Shown here piece by piece: positions 8,798 to 20,742 of a DNA stretch of 64,000 nt. Both the position numbers and the translations under genes were made by a program. Numbering within the stretch: the first letter of the stretch is position 1; each line of letters begins with the position of its first letter. A model generated the notes under the pieces. It searched no databases. It saw only the letters and a program-made list of their open reading frames with translations, and was not told the origin of the DNA. This DNA comes from an uncultured Flavobacteriaceae bacterium. Lineage in GTDB: Bacteria; Bacteroidota; Bacteroidia; Flavobacteriales; Flavobacteriaceae. The DNA lies in contig CALGLR010000055.1 of NCBI GenBank assembly GCA_937959395.1, positions 9,603 through 73,602 on the forward strand. Direction: 5' to 3'.

Positions 8798-10084
8798 TTA
8801 CTCTTTAATCTTAAATTTTATTGGCAAATAATAAGGAACCGTAACCGCTTTTCCTCCATGAGTCCCTGGTATTAATTTTGGAAGCAAACCAACAACTCGT
8901 ATCGCTTCTTCTTCTAAATCAGGATGCGGTGCTCTTGCTTTCAATTCTTTTATTGTACCATCTTCAGAAATTTTGAAAAATACACTTATTTTTAGAACTC
9001 CGGTTAACCCTATATCATCTGCTAATTTTGTATTGAAGTTTTGACCAACTAGTTTATTTATATTCTTTGAAAAACACTTTTTCTGATCTTCTGCGTCTTC
9101 ACAACCTGGAAAAACTGGCACATTCTCTATTATTGAGAAAGCAACCTCATTGGTTTCTACTTTTTTCTCACTATTAAGGCTTTTTTTTTGTTCATACTTC
9201 AAGCTTTCGTCTTGATTTACATCATCACTTTCTTGGACACAAGCGGTATAAAATAGCATACCAACAATTGCTGGAATTAATAATAAATACTTAACTAAAC
9301 TCTGTTGTTTTGATTTTGATTTACTTAACATAATGATTCGTTTTTTGATTAATGATTTTTTAAAAAATGGATTGATAAATGAAATGTTTTTTACTGAAAA
9401 AGCTTGTGCTAATAAACGCTCGTAATAATGTTTCTTATTTTGTGTTATAACCACTTTATCATCGGCGATATACTCATGAAGCGTCGCAATTCTATTTTGA
9501 TAAATATATAGTAAAGGATTAAACCAAAATACGATACGTTGCGCTTCAAAAAATAGTAAATCTAATGAGTGCTTCTCTTTTACATGTATGGTTTCATGTG
9601 CCAATATGCTTTGTCTTTCATCTACATTTAATTGATCTCCAATAAAAACATAACGAAAAAAAGAAAATGCAGCATCACTATTTAATAATGTAATAATTGT
9701 TCCATATTCTGTTTTACTTTTCGGACTCTTAGAAATAAGATGTATTAATTTCACCATCTTTAAAATAAACATAACAAAAGCAAATAGCATTCCTAAATAC
9801 AATACATGTTGCATTGAAAAAGCAAACTCATTTACATTAACTCCGTTATTAGCATCTAATACGTTATTATTAATAACCACTTCCGGCAAACGAATAATAT
9901 ATTCTTGCGGAATTATGTTTTGAAAACTTTCTAATTTAATAAAAGGCAATACTAATGATAGAACACTAGTAATAATTAAATAGGCTCTATTGCAATTAAA
10001 AAACGTTTCTCGCTTTAAAAAAACATCGTAAATCACTATAAATAATAATTGAAATACAATGATTTGAATACTATAATGAATCAT
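8798..10084 (-). CDS. M56 family peptidase / BlaR1-like signal transducer with C-terminal TonB-like domain
   Basis: HETIHVKEKH zinc-metallopeptidase motif (HExxH) in the membrane part. C-terminal domain (VPVFPGC...KAVTVPYYLPIKFK) is typical of TonB C-terminal domains. 4-nt overlap with blaI. Confidence 0.8.
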   Translation of the reverse strand: MIHYSIQIIVFQLLFIVIYDVFLKRETFFNCNRAYLIITSVLSLVLPFIKLESFQNIIPQEYIIRLPEVVINNNVLDANNGVNVNEFAFSMQHVLYLGMLFAFVMFILKMVKLIHLISKSPKSKTEYGTIITLLNSDAAFSFFRYVFIGDQLNVDERQSILAHETIHVKEKHSLDLLFFEAQRIVFWFNPLLYIYQNRIATLHEYIADDKVVITQNKKHYYERLLAQAFSVKNISFINPFFKKSLIKKRIIMLSKSKSKQQSLVKYLLLIPAIVGMLFYTACVQESDDVNQDESLKYEQKKSLNSEKKVETNEVAFSIIENVPVFPGCEDAEDQKKCFSKNINKLVGQNFNTKLADDIGLTGVLKISVFFKISEDGTIKELKARAPHPDLEEEAIRVVGLLPKLIPGTHGGKAVTVPYYLPIKFKIKE

Positions 10085-10446
10085 AACTTTTCATTTTTAT
10101 TAATTTCTTTTAAAACCGATTCTAATTCATCTAAACTGATTTCATTTTTTTTCATAAAAAAGGAAACCATACTTTGAAATGATCCTTGAAAATAGTTATT
10201 TACTAATTTATTTATAGACTGGTTACTGTATTCTGTCTTTTTTAATACAGGGAAATAAATATGTCCCTTTCCTTTTTTTTCATAATCTACAAACCCCTTA
10301 GATTCTAAAATTCTTACTATCGTAGAAACAGTGTTATATGCAGGTTTTGGATCTGGTAATTCCTCTATTATCTGTTTTACATTGGCTTTTTCTAATTGCC
10401 ATAATACTTGCATTATATCTTCTTCTGCCTTTGTTAGTACTTTCAT
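10081..10446 (-). CDS. BlaI/MecI/CopY family transcriptional repressor
   Basis: 121-aa winged-helix protein (LTKAEEDIMQVLW...YNTVSTIVRILESKGFV) overlapping the downstream M56 gene. Confidence 0.85.
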   Translation of the reverse strand: MKVLTKAEEDIMQVLWQLEKANVKQIIEELPDPKPAYNTVSTIVRILESKGFVDYEKKGKGHIYFPVLKKTEYSNQSINKLVNNYFQGSFQSMVSFFMKKNEISLDELESVLKEINKNEKL

Positions 10447-10585: not shown

Positions 10586-11083
10586 ATGGATATACTTTTT
10601 GCCTTTATTGGTTTATTATTTATGTGTTTCGGTTTAATTGGCAGCTTTCTGCCCGTTCTTCCTGGTCCAACATTAAGTTGGGTAGGCTTATTAATGCTTT
10701 ATTTAACTAATGCTATTGATAATGATTGGACTTTCCTTGGAATAACATTAATAATTGCCCTTATTGTTTTTGCACTAGATTATATTATTCCTGCTATAGG
10801 TACCAAGAAATTTGGAGGCACAAAAGCAGGTATGATTGGTACCTCTATAGGTTTAGTTATTGGTATTTTAGCTCCTATTCCTGGCGGAATAATTATTGGC
10901 CCTTTCTTTGGCGCTTTACTAGGAGAACTTTATAACAAAGCAGATTCGACGACTGCGTTAAAAGCGGCATTCGGTTCTTTTTTAGGGCTTTTAACTGGAA
11001 CCTTTTTAAAGTTTATTGTCGCAATAATCTATTTTGGATTTTTTATAAAAACGTTTTGGGAGCACAAAGACCTTATTTTTTAA
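10586..11083 (+). CDS. DUF456-like small membrane protein
   Basis: 165 aa, 4 Gly-rich TM helices (GSFLPVLPGP...IPGGIIIGPFFGALLGE). Confidence 0.6.
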   Translation: MDILFAFIGLLFMCFGLIGSFLPVLPGPTLSWVGLLMLYLTNAIDNDWTFLGITLIIALIVFALDYIIPAIGTKKFGGTKAGMIGTSIGLVIGILAPIPGGIIIGPFFGALLGELYNKADSTTALKAAFGSFLGLLTGTFLKFIVAIIYFGFFIKTFWEHKDLIF

Positions 11084-11341: not shown

Positions 11342-11470
11342 AAAAAGAAACCCTATGTTTTCGAGAGAAAACATAGGGTTATTGTGTAAATGTGCTATTA
11401 CCAACTAATCCCCATTAGTGAGTAACCTAATTTGATTGTTCATCTAATTTACAAAAAATAATAGTTGCTT
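11342..11470 (-). ncRNA. candidate sRNA, copy A (5-prime end approximate)
   Basis: Repeat unit ending in a 14-bp stem (11349-11380) plus U-run on the minus strand, with a 28-nt invariant block next to the terminator. Conserved CTTAGTTTATGTAAA promoter-like box upstream. Confidence 0.4.
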
Positions 11471-11491
11471 TTACATAAACTAAGCGCTCAC

Positions 11492-11511
11492 ATTACGGTT
11501 TCTCCCGTAAT
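11492..11511. promoter_or_regulatory. inverted repeat ATTACGG-N6-CCGTAAT upstream of sRNA copy A
   Basis: Read directly. Same position relative to each repeat copy. Confidence 0.3.
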
Positions 11512-11537
11512 TATTTAATTAATAATCAGAAAACTAC

Positions 11538-11668
11538 AAAAAAGAGGAAACCCCATGTTTTCGAGAGAAAACATAGGGTTATTGTGTAAATGTGCTATTA
11601 CCAACTAATCCTCTTAGTAAGTAACCTAATTGATTGTTAATCTAATTTACAACGAATAATGCTTGGTT
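11538..11668 (-). ncRNA. candidate sRNA, copy B (5-prime end approximate)
   Basis: Same unit as copy A. The stem substitution at 11554 keeps pairing (G-U) only in the minus-strand transcript. Confidence 0.4.
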
Positions 11669-11689
11669 TTACATAAACTAAGTGACCGT

Positions 11690-11709
11690 ATTACGGGTTT
11701 TCCCGTAAT
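11690..11709. promoter_or_regulatory. inverted repeat ATTACGGG-N4-CCCGTAAT upstream of sRNA copy B
   Basis: Perfect 8-bp arms, read directly. Confidence 0.3.
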
Positions 11710-11732
11710 TATGATGATTTTCACCTAATAAT

Positions 11733-11892
11733 CTCAGTTCGACATAAAATGTTAGTGATCAAAGACCGTCAATTCAAGTAAATTTTTGCAACACAGCGAA
11801 AAAAAATAGTGTCCAGAATAGGTTTTTGATACGAAAATCACTGTTCTCGATACACTTCTCCTTAAGTCGAAGCACTCGAACTGACGTGATTT
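11733..11892. repeat. MITE-like ~160-bp element (inverted copy of 20572-20732)
   Basis: Contains CAGTTCGA...TCGAGAACAG...CTTAAGTCGAAGCACTCGAACTGACGTGATT. Aligns by eye with the reverse complement of 20572-20732. Confidence 0.6.
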
Positions 11893-12043
11893 AGAGAGCA
11901 ATTCAGAGGTGTAAATTTCTTCTTATTCAGATTATACTTAAATGGATAGTCCCCTATAATCTTACTTAATCCCTTGAGCCGTCATTTGGTACCTGCGTAG
12001 TCGAAGTTAGCATTAAAACAATTCTAATAAACACATAAATTTA

Positions 12044-12172
12044 TAAAAAGAAGAAACCCTATGTTTTCGAGAGAAAACATAGGGTTATTGTGTAAATGTG
12101 CTATTACCAACTAATCCTCTTAGTAAGTAACCTAATTGATTGTTAATCAAATTTACGACGAATATTAAGTGT
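12044..12172 (-). ncRNA. candidate sRNA, copy C (5-prime end approximate)
   Basis: Third copy of the unit, with terminator stem 12055-12086 plus U-run on the minus strand. Confidence 0.4.
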
Positions 12173-12195
12173 ATTTACATAACTAAGCGAGCTCA

Positions 12196-12215
12196 ATTAC
12201 GGGTTTTAACGTAAT
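12196..12215. promoter_or_regulatory. inverted repeat ATTACG-N8-CGTAAT upstream of sRNA copy C
   Basis: Arms are shortened relative to copy B, but the core ATTACG/CGTAAT is retained. Confidence 0.3.
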
Positions 12216-12245
12216 AGTTACTAATAACAACGTTTAGACTCGCAT

Positions 12246-12290
12246 AAAAAAACTGTTAAAAACACAGAAATTAACATTTTGTTAACAGTT
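12246..12290 (-). terminator. intrinsic terminator after the response-regulator gene
   Basis: Minus strand reads ACTGTTAA-(loop)-TTAACAGT followed by a run of 7 T. Lies 17 nt after the RR stop. Confidence 0.6.
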
Positions 12291-12306
12291 GTGATTTGTG
12301 TTTTCT

Positions 12307-12984
12307 TTACAAAATACCGCGTTCTTGCGCTGCTTTTAACAAAGACTCGTCTTTAGAATCACTTACCTCAAGTAGTTCTCGCAAATGTTTTTTCCGCTTT
12401 TCTATAGTACTTAGCGATACATCTATGTGGTCTTTTATGTTTTTTGTTTTAATCCCTTGAGAGATTAGATGAAGAATTTTAAGATTTGTAGCATCAATTT
12501 CTAAATCTGCTTTAGAAGATTTTTCTACAAATGCTTTTACGGTTTTACTATAAAACGGTGGTTGGGTTAATATCACATGAAATGCACTCGCTAATTCTCT
12601 AGCCGTAAGATCACTTTTTATTAAAAAACCTTCTGGAGCTATAGTATTAATTATATTCTGAATTCTAAAACCTTCATTAAACATGGTAAGAATAACGATT
12701 ATGGCTTCAGGTATTTTTTCACGCACACATTTAGCAAGGTCATAGCCTGATTTAAATTTCCCATCATTAGATGGTGGTATACTAATATCAAAAAACAACA
12801 TGTCGTAAGGATATCCACTAGCTATGGATCCTTCTATAGCTGCAATAGACTCATCACAGTTATTAGCCGTTTCAATAATAAGGTCGTGATTTGCGTTTTT
12901 GGTAGCCAGCAACGTATTTTTATACCCTTCGAGAATCATAGGGTGATCATCTGTCATTAATATTTTAATTGTTCTGGTGGCCAT
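12307..12984 (-). CDS. LuxR/NarL-family response regulator
   Basis: Receiver domain (ILMTDDHPMILEG, phospho-acceptor region MLFFDISIPP) plus C-terminal LuxR HTH (LKILHLISQGIKTKNIKDHIDVSLSTIEKRKKHL). Confidence 0.85.
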   Translation of the reverse strand: MATRTIKILMTDDHPMILEGYKNTLLATKNANHDLIIETANNCDESIAAIEGSIASGYPYDMLFFDISIPPSNDGKFKSGYDLAKCVREKIPEAIIVILTMFNEGFRIQNIINTIAPEGFLIKSDLTARELASAFHVILTQPPFYSKTVKAFVEKSSKADLEIDATNLKILHLISQGIKTKNIKDHIDVSLSTIEKRKKHLRELLEVSDSKDESLLKAAQERGIL

Positions 12985-13004
12985 ATATAATATATCGTCT
13001 CTTT

Positions 13005-15044
13005 TTAGTTAGGAACCTGAATGGTTAAGGTCGTTCCTTTGTTTAGTTTCGTATTAATTTTTAATTCGCCTTGTATTTCTTTTACTCTAGCATACATGTT
13101 TTTTAAACCAATGCCCTTTTTTGCTTTTTCTAAATCAAAACCTGCTCCATCATCTTTAATAATGAGTTTAATTTGGTCTTCGATTTGCTCAAAACTAATA
13201 TCTACTCGCGAACCTTTAGCATGCTTATATATATTTTGTAACGATTCTTGTATAATTCTATAACAATGCATCTTTACTTTATTCGTTAAAGACTCCCAAT
13301 TAATATCGTTATTCTCTTCTAAACTGTATTCTAAATTATAAGCACTTGTTTGTTTATCGACTAATGCCTTTACAATATCAAAATAGCCAGAGCTTGTAAC
13401 AAAATCGGTGTTTAATTCGTGTGATACTTTACGAATATCTTGTTCTATAGCTTGCAACTCTTCTATATAATTACCTCGTGTTTCTATCGCTTCATCTGTT
13501 TTACTAAAGTTTAAGCTATCTAAGCTTAGACGCACTCCAAACAAACGCCCAAGAACACCATCATGCAACTCTTGCGATATTTGTTTCTTCTCCTGCGCTC
13601 TACCCTGGTCTACCTTTTCTTGTTGTGATAGCATAAGGTTGTAGATCTCTTCGTTAAATTCTTGTTGTTTTTGAGCCAATTCTAACTCTTTATTTTTCTC
13701 TCGCTGTGTTTTGATAATATACAATAAAAATAATGTAATTGCTAATATCCCCGTAACCAAGAGTAACCACAAACGTTGCTTAGAAATTTGTTGGTTCTCT
13801 TCTTTTACTTCTATATTTTCTAGTTTTACTTCTTCGGTCTCATATTCTATACGTGCAAATTTATTACGTATAGCGCGTTCTGCTGTTTGAAGACTATCAC
13901 TGAGCTTAATTCTTTCAAGCAAATATTTTTTGGCATCTAAAGCAGGTTCTATTTTTGATTTGAGTTCAAGTGCAGTTATAACAAATTCATTAATATTTAA
14001 TTCTTTACCTAATTGATATGCTTTGTTTGCATAATGTAACGCCGAATCTTTTTCTTCAATATTTTGGAAGTATTCTGAAAAAAATAAACTAGCGGATATT
14101 ATTTCTACATCATTTTTTTTAGAAATGCTTATTGATAAAGATTCTCTATATAAATCTTCAAGTTCATTATTAGAAATATTTCCTTCTAAGAATTTAGTAT
14201 ATGCCAAACTAGATAGTATGATTGCATAAGTAGAAATATCTTTTTCTTTTAACCTTTTTTTTGTTTTTAAAAGATTATTATATCTTTTAATTGCTTCTTT
14301 ATAATTCCCTGATCGTCTATAAACATTAGCAATATTAACTAAAGAATATAAATTTAAATCATCGTTTTCTTTGATTTTTGATGAAAAACTTAAGGCTTTA
14401 TTATGATATTCTAAAGACTTATCATATTGTTTTAGTTTATTTGAAACTATTGCTAGAAGGTTATTAAGTTTCCATAATTTATCATATTTCCAATCGTTAT
14501 CTGGAAGACTCTCAGCAATTTCGATAGCACTAATAGCATTAACTTCTGAACCAATATAATCACGTTCAGTTTCTTGAAGGTCTGCCATATTATAAAGAAT
14601 TGAACACTGATTTTTATGATTCGAAAGATTTTTATATGCTTTTACAGCCTTATAATAGTAAAAATAAGCACTGTCACTTTTAAATTTATCGTGAAAATAA
14701 TATCCTAAAATTTGATTAGCATTTGCAATAGCAGACGAGTCTTTAATTCTTTTAGCCAAAAATAAGTTTTTATGATTTATTGGATATAATGAATCTATTT
14801 TACCATCAATTAGAAACAAGTATGACAGTGTTTTTTGGCTCTTTAAAATAGTAGAATCATTATGCTTTTTAGATAATTTTATTGCCTGGTAAGCAGATTT
14901 ATAACGTTCTTCAATAGTTAGTTTATTATTTTTAGCTTCAGAACGGAACTCAAGAATTTCATTTAATTCTTTTTCCTGAGCAAATACATTTATGCATGCT
15001 AAAAAAACTGTAAGATATAGGGTGATTTTAATCAATGTAAACAA
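13005..15044 (-). CDS. sensor histidine kinase with large extracytoplasmic TPR-like domain (HisKA_3 type)
   Basis: TTG start, signal-like N-terminus, ~390 aa of TPR-like helical repeats, single TM (LWLLLVTGILAITLFLLYII). Then a coiled coil, H-box ELHDGVLGRL and the HATPase motifs DDGAGF and GIGLKNM. Confidence 0.85.
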   Translation of the reverse strand: MFTLIKITLYLTVFLACINVFAQEKELNEILEFRSEAKNNKLTIEERYKSAYQAIKLSKKHNDSTILKSQKTLSYLFLIDGKIDSLYPINHKNLFLAKRIKDSSAIANANQILGYYFHDKFKSDSAYFYYYKAVKAYKNLSNHKNQCSILYNMADLQETERDYIGSEVNAISAIEIAESLPDNDWKYDKLWKLNNLLAIVSNKLKQYDKSLEYHNKALSFSSKIKENDDLNLYSLVNIANVYRRSGNYKEAIKRYNNLLKTKKRLKEKDISTYAIILSSLAYTKFLEGNISNNELEDLYRESLSISISKKNDVEIISASLFFSEYFQNIEEKDSALHYANKAYQLGKELNINEFVITALELKSKIEPALDAKKYLLERIKLSDSLQTAERAIRNKFARIEYETEEVKLENIEVKEENQQISKQRLWLLLVTGILAITLFLLYIIKTQREKNKELELAQKQQEFNEEIYNLMLSQQEKVDQGRAQEKKQISQELHDGVLGRLFGVRLSLDSLNFSKTDEAIETRGNYIEELQAIEQDIRKVSHELNTDFVTSSGYFDIVKALVDKQTSAYNLEYSLEENNDINWESLTNKVKMHCYRIIQESLQNIYKHAKGSRVDISFEQIEDQIKLIIKDDGAGFDLEKAKKGIGLKNMYARVKEIQGELKINTKLNKGTTLTIQVPN

Positions 15045-15259
15045 ATTTCATGTATTCAAAGTAATACATTTTATATAAATCTAGTTTAAAAATCTAAATT
15101 CATCAACTCATATGTATTTTAATTGAAAAATTTTATTTTCAAACTTTTTACAATTGTAAATTAATAGAGTTTCTTCTATGTAAGATTAAAGTTTAATATT
15201 ATGTCTGTTTACAAAAAGAAACATTAGTAAATTTTAAAACTTTGTTGATATTTAATTTT

Positions 15260-15439
15260 CTATCCCTGCCCTGGTACATCTTTTACCTTTATATCTATTA
15301 AAGCTGTCAACTTTACTTTTGGTTGATTGATCTCATGATTTGAAGATTCATTCTCTCCTGTTTCTTCTTTTAACTGGCTTATTCCTGTTAATAATGCAAT
15401 CGCAAAAATGGCTAGTACTGTAATTTTTAATGTTTTCAT
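15260..15439 (-). CDS. small secreted peptide paralog P1 (59 aa, not in ORF track)
   Basis: Hand translation: MKTLKITVLAIFAIALLTGISQLKEETGENESSNHEINQPKVKLTALIDIKVKDVPGQG. Confidence 0.6.
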   Translation of the reverse strand: MKTLKITVLAIFAIALLTGISQLKEETGENESSNHEINQPKVKLTALIDIKVKDVPGQG

Positions 15440-15472
15440 AATGTTTTATTTTTGTGTTATTCAATCAATTTT

Positions 15473-15652
15473 CTATCCCTGTCCTGGCACATCTTTCACC
15501 TTTATATCTATTAAAGCTGTCAACTTTACTTTTGGTTGATTGATCTCATGATTTGAAGATTCATTCTCTCCTGTTTCTTCTTTTAACTGGCTTACTCCTG
15601 TTAATAATGCAATCGCAAAAATGGCTAATACTGTAATTTTTAATGTTTTCAT
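15473..15652 (-). CDS. small secreted peptide paralog P2 (59 aa, not in ORF track)
   Basis: MKTLKITVLAIFAIALLTGVSQLKEETGENESSNHEINQPKVKLTALIDIKVKDVPGQG. Differs from P1 by one residue plus synonymous changes. Confidence 0.6.
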   Translation of the reverse strand: MKTLKITVLAIFAIALLTGVSQLKEETGENESSNHEINQPKVKLTALIDIKVKDVPGQG

Positions 15653-15685
15653 AATGTTTTGTTTTTGTGTTATTTAATCAATTTT

Positions 15686-15865
15686 CTATCCCTGTCCTGG
15701 CACATCTTTTACCTTTATATCTATTAAAGCTGTCAACTTTACTTTAGGCTGATTGATCTCATAATTCGAAGATTCCTTTGCTCCTGTTTCTTCTTTTAAC
15801 CGGCTTACTCCTGTTAATAATGCAATCGCAAAAATGGCTAATACTGTAATTTTTAATATTTTCAT
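15686..15865 (-). CDS. small secreted peptide paralog P3 (59 aa, not in ORF track)
   Basis: MKILKITVLAIFAIALLTGVSRLKEETGAKESSNYEINQPKVKLTALIDIKVKDVPGQG. Confidence 0.6.
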   Translation of the reverse strand: MKILKITVLAIFAIALLTGVSRLKEETGAKESSNYEINQPKVKLTALIDIKVKDVPGQG

Positions 15866-15897
15866 AATGTTTTGTTTTTGTTATTATAATTAATTTT

Positions 15898-16080
15898 CTA
15901 TCCCTGTCCTGGCACATCTTTTACCTTTATATCTATTAAAGCTGTCAACTTTATTTTCGGCTGGTTTACCTCATGATTTGAAGATTCATTCGTCCCAGTT
16001 TCAGTCTCTTTTAACTGGCTTACTCCTGTTAATAATGCAATCGCAAAAATGGCTAGTACTGTAATTTTTACTGTTTTCAT
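15898..16080 (-). CDS. small secreted peptide paralog P4 (60 aa)
   Basis: Track ORF: MKTVKITVLAIFAIALLTGVSQLKETETGTNESSNHEVNQPKIKLTALIDIKVKDVPGQG. Confidence 0.6.
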   Translation of the reverse strand: MKTVKITVLAIFAIALLTGVSQLKETETGTNESSNHEVNQPKIKLTALIDIKVKDVPGQG

Positions 16081-16452
16081 AATGTTTGGTTTTTTGTTAT
16101 TTTAATTAATTTTTTAAATTTTGGTCTCTAAGTGTTATGTCGTAAGTAATATGTATATACTACAATAAGCCGTATGAAATTATCATACAGAGCCCTTGTA
16201 AATCGTAATGTATTTTTTATTAAATAAGTTTAGTGACATTAAGGGATTCAATAAGTACCTCGAAGATATGGGCTATAACTAAAAGTGTATAAAATTACCG
16301 ATAAAGTCTGTTGTTTTTTGGATGAAGTGTTGTTTTACTTCATTTATCGATCGATAATCGATTTTTTATTTTTTTGCACATTCAAAAATAAGACATATCT
16401 ACTTAACTTTCAATAGATTATTACTATACATTAATAAATAAAATCATTGTTT

Positions 16453-16869
16453 TTAGGCCTTCTTTTTGTTTAGCTGTTTAATGTAAAAAGAGGGATAAAT
16501 ACCTACCTGTTTATAAAATGCTTTAGAAAACGACTCTGTATTATTAAAACCAACTTGTTCGGCTATCGCTTTAATGGTATAATTTCGAAGTTTACTATTT
16601 ACTTTTAAAGTTTCAATCGCATAGTTAATACGCAAGTTTTTTATATAGTTAGAATACGAATCGCCTTTGTAATGCTTTATAATTTTAGACAAATAAGACG
16701 AATTGGTTTCTAATTGCTTGGCTAAGCTATTTACCGTTAACTCGTTTAGTAAATATCCTTTTTGTGATTCAAATTGTTTTAGACCTTTTAAAACTGTTTC
16801 AATAATTTCTGGAGAAATATCTAATGAGGTAATTGTTGTTGTTTTCGGTAAAACATATATGACGCAAAA
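16453..16869 (-). pseudogene. AraC-family HTH domain remnant (N-terminally truncated)
   Basis: The open frame extends upstream of the track TTG to a stop at 16870-16872. It encodes ...ISPEIIETVLKGLKQFESQKGYLLNELTVNSLAKQLETNSSYLSKIIKHYKG..., a complete AraC double-HTH. There is no ATG/GTG start and no sensor domain. Confidence 0.5.
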
Positions 16870-20484: not shown

Positions 20485-20571
20485 ATTCTATGTAAAAATG
20501 GCATTAGCACGAATAAGTATTTTATACCTCACAGGTTTTAAAAACCTGCGAACGTGAGTTCAACTTAAGAA

Positions 20572-20732
20572 AATCACGTCAGTTCGAGTGCTTCGACTTT
20601 AGGAGAAGTGTATCGAGAACATAGATTTCCTTACCAAAAACCTATTCTCGATACTATTTTTTTCCACTTTATTCCAAAAAATCACTCGAACTGACAGTTT
20701 TTGATCACCGACACCTTTATATCGAACTGAAG
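20572..20732. repeat. MITE-like ~160-bp element (inverted copy of 11733-11892)
   Basis: AATCACGTCAGTTCGAGTGCTTCGACTTTAGGAGAAGTGTATCGAGAAC...CACTCGAACTGACAG with internal terminal inverted repeats. Confidence 0.6.
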
Positions 20733-20742
20733 TTGTAAGGTA

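Follow-up and report, generated by a model that had tools for sequence, protein, structure and literature searches.

We analysed a stretch of 64,000 nucleotides (nt) from an uncultured Flavobacteriaceae bacterium (contig CALGLR010000055.1, positions 9,603 to 73,602; assembly GCA_937959395.1), called the window in the following, in which genes for small exported proteins, a sensor histidine kinase, a response regulator and small RNAs (sRNAs) follow each other on the minus strand between positions 11342 and 16080. The original prediction for this region, made from the letters of the window, named four secreted-peptide paralogs, a kinase, a LuxR-type regulator and three sRNA-like units on this strand, and all of them were found at the given positions in the list of open reading frames (ORFs) and in the raw sequence. 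The features of the locus, in window positions, are the following:

16081-16350, minus strand: promoter and 5' leader region of the peptide array (ATCGAT palindromes, CTTCATCCA/CTTTATCGG repeats, AATCCCTTAA motif), with a hairpin at 16190-16170
15254-16113, minus strand: tandem array holding the four small exported-protein genes (Tandem Repeats Finder: period 213 bp, 4.0 copies, 93% matches)
15898-16080, minus strand: small exported protein copy 1, 60 amino acids (aa), with an N-terminal signal-type helix and C-terminal VPGQG
15686-15865, minus strand: small exported protein copy 2, 59 aa, identical to database protein P0121
15473-15652, minus strand: small exported protein copy 3, 59 aa (ORF)
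15260-15439, minus strand: small exported protein copy 4, 59 aa (ORF)
13005-15044, minus strand: sensor histidine kinase, 679 aa (Pfam, NCBIfam, hydropathy, AlphaFold, Foldseek)
15044-14976, minus strand: signal peptide or first transmembrane segment (TM1) of the kinase, aa 1-23 (hydropathy)
14975-13779, minus strand: predicted periplasmic superhelix of about eight tetratricopeptide repeats (TPRs) of the kinase, aa 24-422 (hydropathy and AlphaFold model)
13778-13704, minus strand: second transmembrane segment (TM2) of the kinase, aa 423-447 (hydropathy)
within 13005-15044, minus strand: HisKA_3 and HATPase_c core of the kinase, aa 448-679 (Pfam)
12307-12984, minus strand: NarL/FixJ-type response regulator, 225 aa, with receiver domain and LuxR-type helix-turn-helix (HTH) domain (Pfam, NCBIfam, PDB relatives)
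12232-12306, minus strand: spacer behind the regulator with a weak hairpin, a U-run and a conserved TGTTAAwwTT motif (folding, locus comparison)
12196-12215, no strand: putative dyad operator of sRNA unit A, ATTACGTTAAAACCCGTAAT on the minus strand, centre at about -62.5
12148-12155, minus strand: -7 box of sRNA unit A, TAAATTTG (sequence; box kept in relatives)
12046-12143, minus strand: sRNA copy A, about 98 nt, terminator stem 12086-12055 (repeats, folding, profile)
11690-11709, no strand: putative dyad operator of sRNA unit B (dyad scan)
11540-11637, minus strand: sRNA copy B, -7 box 11649-11642, terminator 11580-11549 (repeats, folding, profile)
11492-11511, no strand: putative dyad operator of sRNA unit C (dyad scan)
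11342-11439, minus strand: sRNA copy C, -7 box 11451-11444, terminator 11380-11349 (repeats, folding, profile)
11720-11895, no strand: repeat with terminal inverted repeats resembling a miniature inverted-repeat transposable element (MITE), between sRNA copies A and B and outside the module (inverted-repeat search)

Judged by their synteny, the small exported protein, the kinase, the regulator and the sRNA are one co-inherited module. A query of genome contigs with the single kinase matched nothing, and the loci were gathered with an alignment of 32 kinase orthologs, which gave 80 genome loci from more than 25 Flavobacteriaceae genera, including Olleya, Lacinutrix, Bizionia, Psychroserpens, Winogradskyella, Gelidibacter, Xanthomarina, Mangrovimonas, Algibacter, Flaviramulus, Mariniflexile and Formosa. 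The kinase orthologs share about 50% identity across these marine genera, and in every locus with sufficient sequence a regulator ortholog (52-60% identity) is encoded directly downstream of the kinase. A homologous sRNA lies about 150-210 nt past the regulator in essentially every locus with sequence. On the other side of the kinase, a small-protein gene is located 58-376 nt upstream in 93 of 96 loci, not counting the upstream copies of multi-copy arrays; 50 of the 80 genome loci have a match to the small-protein profile 100-350 nt upstream of the kinase on the same strand, and the remaining 30 carry, on inspection, a divergent form of the same kind of gene.

The arrangement was also recovered when the search started from the other components. 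A search of metagenome contigs with the sRNA motif only yielded 65 loci, 52 of them with at least 450 nt of upstream sequence, and in 51 of these 52 a regulator ortholog ends 138-173 nt before the motif. The 52nd contig, L086, was considered as a case of an sRNA without a nearby regulator and was rejected, since it proved to contain a tandem sRNA duplication behind a regulator (L086:700-1300); each of the two units has its own dyad pair, and the loop of the first has diverged (TTTAATCCCAAT). From the peptide side, a kinase ortholog follows P0127, P0131 and P0122, the small proteins that were looked up with enough flanking sequence. Locus L147 has the same order as the window even beyond the module, with peptide, kinase, regulator, sRNA, a convergent DUF456 gene and a BlaI-like gene. 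Altogether, synteny holds in about 140 independent loci approached from the kinase, sRNA and peptide sides. The original prediction had named independent occurrence of the components as the observation that would speak against it, and in the data examined they were never independent.

No description of the module was found in the full-text literature, Rfam, Pfam or NCBIfam. The module is apparently undescribed. It joins a two-component system to a small-protein partner and to an sRNA as its probable dedicated output, and no such system is known to have been described for the phylum. The original prediction had likewise known of no equivalent in Bacteroidota, and full-text literature searching found none.

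The copy numbers in the window are exceptional. A single peptide gene is present in 91 of 96 loci, arrays being restricted to the window (four copies), L005 (four) and L064 (six), and a single sRNA is found in 140 of 142 sources, with arrays only in the window (three copies) and in L086 (two), where the duplication is independent of that in the window. The original prediction had taken the peptide array and the multiple sRNAs under one regulator as the architecture of the system; this part has to be given up, as one peptide gene and one sRNA are the rule.

The three sRNA units of the window are direct repeats of about 98 nt each. Every unit has a -7 box of the Bacteroidota type (TAAATT[T/A]G) and an intrinsic terminator with a 14-bp stem, and the folds have z-scores of -5.7 to -6.2. 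In the relatives, nearly every locus contains two dyads, a -7 box that mostly reads TATATTTG, and a conserved RNA of about 100 nt after the regulator. This canonical RNA consists of a 5' hairpin (TCAACA.../...TGTTGA) with the apical loop (A)UUAAUCCCUC, an invariant single-stranded stretch, UAAUAGCA, and an intrinsic terminator; the loop UUAAUCCCUC is present in most genera. In an alignment of 75 sequences the terminator helix shows compensatory changes at eight of eight pairs, and 95% of its cells are paired compared with 23-42% when the partner columns are slid. RNAalifold on a MAFFT alignment recovered this terminator only; the register of the 5' hairpin differs between clades, and the hairpin was assessed with single-sequence folds and a manually set outer stem. 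The outer stem is 95.6% paired and nearly invariant, with little covariation, and the single-sequence folds place the C-rich motif in a hairpin loop in 57 of the 69 sequences that bear it.

A profile hidden Markov model of the sRNA matches 142 of 147 sources, the five misses being truncated contigs or visibly divergent copies, and the element is absent from the rest of the approximately 1.5 Mb searched. Across genera the sRNA is more conserved than the flanking spacers, and the distance of the -7 box to the dyads and to the conserved 5' end is constant in about 70 loci. The sRNA sequences inspected contain no visible ORF that starts with ATG. Rfam searches with the window and with canonical loci, at gathering and at permissive thresholds, returned chance-level matches only, none of them to Qrr. 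With its own promoter, an intrinsic terminator, non-coding sequence and conservation of both sequence and structure, the element has the properties of a trans-acting sRNA gene, and on these properties it is very probably a real gene.

The regulator matches Pfam Response_reg and, weakly, GerE. Its full-length NCBIfam alignments are to MctR, NarL and RcsB, all under the equivalog cut-offs, and in the PDB it is most closely related to NarL, RcsB and VraR, over aa 6-214. A DD motif and the Asp of FFDISIP are present, so that the protein combines a receiver domain with acidic pocket and phospho-acceptor Asp with a C-terminal LuxR/GerE HTH domain, as is typical for NarL/FixJ response regulators. A terminator had been predicted behind the regulator; the hairpin and U-run at this position are AU-rich and weak (-9.4 kcal/mol, z = 0.13), no better than shuffled sequence, and do not convince as a terminator. 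The motif (A)ATGTTAAwwTT follows the regulator stop codon across genera (window 12270-12300; for instance L002, L005, L012 and L018), within the first 40 nt or so.

Dyads of a single type accumulate between the regulator and the sRNA. Allowing for at least 9 of 10 matching positions, TACGG-N5-CCGTA occurs 78 times in the 200 nt after the regulator compared with 11 times in the remaining approximately 1.0 Mb of the loci. The -7 consensus of Bacteroidota is TAnnTTTG at -12 to -5 (PMC9723704). Counted from the +1 that is implied by the -7 box, a dyad centre falls exactly on -42 in 53 loci and exactly on -64 in 48 loci, which gives a spacing of 22 bp. The promoter consensus is TACGGTTTT.CCGtA-N7-TaCGGTTTT.CCGcA, followed 19 nt later by TATATTTG, and a -33-like TTG is present in only 6 of 72 promoters. 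Dyads at -42 and -64 without a -33 element are the signature of an activator-dependent promoter with class II and class I sites. In the window, each sRNA unit has one dyad, a perfect ATTACG-N8-CGTAAT with an N6 spacer, centred at about -62.5 and thereby in the distal position; these are the only three perfect matches in the 64 kb.

The spacer of the dyad co-varies with the amino acid at position 168 of the regulator, where the HTH domain begins (window about 12481-12483). This residue is Arg in 65 loci with an N5 spacer. In a sub-clade with an N6 spacer it is His in five of five loci (L005, L018, L009 and the Olleya loci L006 and L007) and Leu in the window. Locus L008 has Arg at this position together with one N5 and one N6 dyad. 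Dyad geometry, the promoter without a -33 element and the co-variation support the link from regulator to sRNA, which had at first been drawn from adjacency and domain logic, and the regulator very probably switches on the sRNA gene.

Pfam identifies TPR_12, HisKA_3 (25.9 bits, cut-off 24) and HATPase_c in the kinase. The H-box ELHDG is invariant in 32 of 32 orthologs, and Foldseek relates the core to DesK and VraS; HisKA_3 with H-box, together with HATPase_c, places the protein among the kinases of the DesK/NarX/LiaS type. Hydropathy shows only two hydrophobic segments, aa 1-23 (ending in VFA|QE) and aa 423-447 (followed by a basic stretch). Since the TPR region of about 400 aa is flanked by these two segments, it is predicted to be extracytoplasmic, that is periplasmic, as had been proposed before. 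An AlphaFold model built on the 32 orthologs has a predicted local distance difference test score (pLDDT) above 90 over aa 30-365 and shows 17 helices arranged as a TPR superhelix, and the ortholog alignment reveals many invariant polar residues in this domain, mainly Asp, Asn, Ser and Gln. The best Foldseek matches of the sensor are the 8-TPR domains of LGN/Pins (E about 2e-11, target-normalised template modelling score about 0.7, about 16% identity), for several of which structures with bound partner proteins exist. The first 80-100 or so residues of the sensor in the Algibacter/Flaviramulus/Mariniflexile clade no longer align with the kinase of the window.

The four small proteins of the window are 86-93% identical to each other in pairwise comparison, and no Pfam or NCBIfam family was found for the small protein. 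An exhaustive profile search detected 16 further clusters with proteins of 45-83 aa, mostly 56-63 aa. Three flavours occur among the loci. The common one, to which the proteins of the window belong, has the form MKTLKITLLLLAVLLLTVSG|QSSD...DLLAH.KKK..(V/L)P-x-(Q/N)-G-COOH with a signal-peptidase-I-type site; that of Xanthomarina and Mangrovimonas likewise ends in VPTQG; and that of Algibacter, Flaviramulus and Mariniflexile is a mini-lipoprotein with a lipobox Cys (...LTSC|TKQDLNEDDVL...TGG...). The mature protein has about 35 aa, is rich in Lys and ends in (V/I)P-x-(Q/N)-G-COOH. The C-terminal motif and a basic cluster are conserved across the small proteins; the mature sequences diverge fast, including a switch between soluble protein and lipoprotein. 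In the lipoprotein clade (L048-L081), the gene is located about 60-280 nt upstream of the kinase, and the acidic mature N-terminus C-TKQDLNEDDVL is strongly conserved; it recalls the surface-export signal of Bacteroidota lipoproteins.

Most of the loci L002-L081 (for instance L012:5300-5630) have a conserved 5' leader in front of the peptide gene, about 250-300 nt long. Upstream of the -7 box of this leader, CAyTTmATCGA occurs twice at a distance of about 21 nt, in many cases inside an ATCGAT palindrome. Past the box comes a hairpin, which in 53 of 74 leaders is followed by TTAATwATCCATT..TCCCTC motifs, one or two per leader, with a resemblance to the apical loop of the sRNA. These motifs are absent or reduced in the window (16081-16350) and its closest relatives, and Rfam gave no match to the leader. 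The architecture of the leader suggests a second regulator and possibly a partner that is shared with the sRNA.

A pathway can be proposed from these components. The small protein would stay periplasmic or membrane-bound, occupy the concave groove of the TPR domain and set or report the activity of the kinase; it could be a co-sensor or a ligand that signals by abundance, proteolysis or displacement. From what is known of the family, the HisKA_3 kinase would phosphorylate the regulator. Dimers of the regulator would then bind the tandem TACGG-N5/6-CCGTA dyads at -42 and -64 and activate the sRNA promoter, and the sRNA would act post-transcriptionally, most likely by base-pairing through its apical loop UUAAUCCCUC and the linker UAAUAGCA. 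In the genome studied here, the peptide gene would have been amplified to four copies and the sRNA gene to three. We consider it rather probable that the window contains such a signalling module, conserved in Flavobacteriaceae, made up of four obligate parts and here amplified locally, and that it works in the proposed way. That the peptide binds the kinase is inferred from synteny, the shared periplasm, the analogy of the TPR fold and the conserved motifs.

Several observations weigh against this reading. The sRNAs of the window lack the CCCUC loop and the proximal dyad that are found elsewhere, and the canonical mechanism may for this reason be altered in this genome. They keep the distal dyad only, and their apical region has diverged, the loop being GGGG in copy C and GAGG in copies A and B. 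The canonical loop (for instance L058:3259-3355), when reverse-complemented, resembles the inner hairpin of the window units (..CUAAGAGGAUUAG..; 12100-12135, and likewise in copies B and C), the best match being TAAT-CCTCTTAGTAA to TAATCCCTCTTAGTAA. Mean scores are 14.3 with the reverse complement, 9.8 with the forward strand and 10.9 +/- 1.2 with shuffles (z about 2.7). With this modest support, the scores only hint at an inversion of the loop between the stem arms, from CCCUC to GAGG, in the lineage of the window. Furthermore, no sRNA targets could be predicted from searches of the loci and the 64-kb window: sites complementary to the loop (GAGGGATTAA) revealed no recurrent adjacent target in the loci, a search in which the same-sense CCCTC motifs of the operon leader surfaced, and RNAduplex of the window sRNA with the 64-kb window returned only long imperfect duplexes, which were uninformative.

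In addition, a stable, terminator-like hairpin followed by a T-run parts the small-protein gene from the kinase gene in 44 of 73 loci (for instance L017, L028 and L020; in the window the spacer is 15045-15259). It suggests either partial termination, yielding more peptide mRNA than kinase/regulator mRNA, or separate transcription; because of this hairpin the two genes may be separate transcription units. In none of the loci does a dyad precede the peptide gene or the kinase gene, so that there is no sign of feedback through the regulator, and autoregulation of the operon through the same dyad was rejected on this ground. Finally, the co-variation of residue 168 with the spacer may come from a single clade and a single evolutionary event, and is for this reason supportive and not decisive.

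The resemblance between the sRNA and the leader permits some speculation. As a bolder extension of the proposal, the sRNA loop and the TCCATT..CCCTC motifs of the leader might bind a common partner and thereby close a post-transcriptional feedback loop. This feedback loop would then be rewired in the lineage of the window, where the sRNA loop has apparently been inverted to its complement.

The four-part module looks like an envelope-sensing pathway rather than a means of cell-to-cell signalling. Stated in its most specific form, it would be a pathway specific to Flavobacteriaceae in which a periplasmic mini-protein or mini-lipoprotein is the cognate ligand or co-sensor of a FimS-class TPR kinase, with a single sRNA as dedicated output; we put this forward tentatively, with less than even confidence. 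A competing explanation is that the small protein is not the input signal. It might assist the kinase as a modulator or stabiliser, much as MgrB, SafA, SamT or LiaF do, or be an envelope protein that simply shares the locus, and the TPR domain might sense something else, for instance peptides of a host or an alga, unfolded proteins of the envelope or lipids. Small membrane or periplasmic modulators of kinases are common (PMC13425233), and the ligand of the TPR sensor of FimS is still unknown (PMC11053733). The terminator-like hairpin that often separates the two genes and the quick divergence of the mature sequences with their soluble/lipoprotein switch fit such a role as well. However, the near-absolute synteny in more than 25 genera, the long conserved leader that the peptide gene has for itself and the conserved C-terminal motif point to a specific partnership, though they fit a ligand as well as a modulator. 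Considering both sides, we regard the modulator explanation as rather unlikely.

The original prediction had interpreted the locus as a self-contained cell-cell or envelope signalling module. Co-inheritance supports a single module, which looks like the second of these options; the first is improbable. A quorum-sensing circuit with secreted peptide pheromones, similar to RRNPP and LuxO-Qrr systems and with the arrays as part of its design, would be in line with the export signals of the peptides, with the ability of TPR domains to bind peptides, the closest folds of the sensor being peptide-binding 8-TPR domains, and with the amplified dosage of the peptide gene in three lineages. Yet Sec export in a diderm ends in the periplasm, no dedicated exporter gene is linked to the loci, and at about 35 aa the peptide exceeds the size that general porins let through. 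The lipobox Cys of the Algibacter/Flaviramulus/Mariniflexile clade would even tether the product to the membrane. The arrays are the exception, as the copy numbers given above show, and the defining features of RRNPP and LuxO/Qrr systems were not found. It is very hard to believe that the sRNA units are repeats or DNA elements acting in cis, or that they form the 3' end of the regulator transcription unit, with dyads bound by an unrelated factor: the missing Rfam family, a hairpin between convergent genes that could be a bidirectional terminator and a true MITE-like repeat inside the array would agree with it, but the consensus -7 box at its fixed distance, the conservation above that of the spacers, the terminator covariation, the absence of the element from the other sequence searched and the co-variation of the operator spacer with the adjacent regulator all speak for an RNA gene.

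Some further features surround the module. The element of about 170 nt inserted at 11720-11895 looks like a MITE or a repetitive extragenic palindromic (REP) type sequence, with the terminal inverted repeats AATCACGTCAGTTCGA ... TCGAACTGAGATT; a second, 84-88% identical copy lies at 20571-20741, intergenic between convergent genes. Just upstream of the leader, an ORF of 79 aa (16453-16692, minus strand) contains an AraC-type HTH_18 domain only; normal regulators of the AraC family are longer, and this ORF may be what is left of a gene. The neighbour on this side in Algibacter-type loci seems, judged by sequence alone, to be the C-terminal end of a regulator gene instead, and several loci have a tRNA gene upstream of the leader. 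Beyond the sRNA end of the module, a convergent gene for a DUF456 membrane protein (10586-11083) is followed by a BlaI/BlaR1-like pair, of which one gene matches Penicillinase_R (10081-10446) and the other encodes M56 peptidase and TonB_C domains (8798-10084). The DUF456 and BlaI-like neighbours recur in a distant genome (L147:7256-8174).

Flavobacteriaceae are major degraders of marine polysaccharides, and post-transcriptional regulation in their class is almost unexplored. To our knowledge, the phylum lacks Hfq and ProQ. One functionally studied sRNA, Rfp18, turned up for the class in the literature search (PMC9723704). The module provides an sRNA whose regulator is obvious, whose operator is defined and for which a candidate input exists, and thereby an entry to sRNA biology in the phylum. 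It also pairs a periplasmic TPR sensor with a co-encoded candidate ligand, where the signal of FimS remains unknown, and the -42/-64 geometry with its N5/N6 spacer switch and the matching change in the regulator offers a clean system for promoter activation in Bacteroidota. If the proposal is true, this would be the first two-component-controlled sRNA regulon in Flavobacteriia and the first ligand class for periplasmic-TPR kinases.

The analogies on which the original prediction was built, LuxO-Qrr and RRNPP, share with the module the layout in which a peptide or signal acts through a phosphorelay on one or several sRNAs, and RRNPP proteins also bind peptides through TPRs. Neither analogy could be upheld. 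LuxO is an activator of the NtrC type that works with sigma-54, and the Qrr RNAs are an Rfam family; here, the regulator is of the NarL type, the promoter has a TAnnTTTG -7 box of the sigma-A type, and neither Qrr nor any other Rfam family was matched. RRNPP proteins are cytoplasmic one-component regulators of Gram-positive bacteria that sense re-imported peptides, whereas the TPR domain of the module is predicted to be periplasmic and is fused to a kinase, and no RRNPP structure is among the top 50 fold matches.

The best fold matches of the sensor, the 8-TPR domains of LGN/Pins, are a structural analogue only: they belong to eukaryotic cytoplasmic proteins, and at about 16% identity the similarity is one of fold class and not functional homology. 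Domains of this type hold extended peptides of 30-40 residues in their inner channel. This is about the size of the mature small protein. Together with the shared compartment, the conserved residues and motifs of both proteins and the precedents given below, it makes the proposed binding of peptide to kinase better founded than adjacency alone would.

As in MgrB-PhoQ, SafA-PhoQ, SamT-RstB and PorA-PorY, a very small exported or membrane protein is here tied genetically to a two-component system. SamT modulates RstB in a circuit that feeds into the sRNA OmrB (PMC13425233), and PorA, a periplasmic protein ligand of PorY, is a precedent from Bacteroidota (PMC12152298). The small protein of the module has no sequence relationship to these proteins. 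Its gene is located immediately upstream of the kinase and is not a member of the regulon, no operator of the regulator was found at its promoter, and the receptor domain is a TPR superhelix.

The GacS/GacA (BarA/UvrY) system with RsmX/Y/Z (CsrB/C) resembles the module in its NarL/FixJ-type regulator, in having one or several sRNA genes as the conspicuous and, in the module, probable direct target, in the palindromic upstream activating sequence and in an sRNA copy number that varies between lineages. The GacA box is TGTAAG-N6-CTTACA; the dyad of the module agrees with it in layout only, as its sequence is different. The regulator is outside the UvrY/GacA family (18.8 bits to the UvrY/SirA/GacA model NF007018, cut-off 280), and the kinase is not an unorthodox tripartite one. 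The sRNA has one C-rich loop (UUAAUCCCUC) and no repeated GGA motifs, it resembles a base-pairing RNA with a single seed, and targets of the CsrA type are not indicated.

FimS-FimR of Porphyromonas gingivalis also has a Bacteroidota kinase with about eight periplasmic TPR motifs between two membrane segments (PMC11053733), and the kinase of the module has this architecture of a multi-TPR sensor between two hydrophobic segments. FimS, whose ligand is still unknown, is considered a drug target (PMC11053733). The core of the kinase described here is of the HisKA_3/DesK-like type with a NarL-type partner, its output is an adjacent sRNA where that of FimS is a set of fimbrial genes, and for FimS no small exported partner protein has been described. 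The NCBIfam model of FimS aligns partially, to aa 75-455, with 41.3 bits, far under its cut-off of 600, and the kinase is therefore not an ortholog; as far as its sequence tells, it is a distant relative that works like FimS. FimS and GacA-Rsm are closer parallels to the module than RRNPP and LuxO/Qrr.

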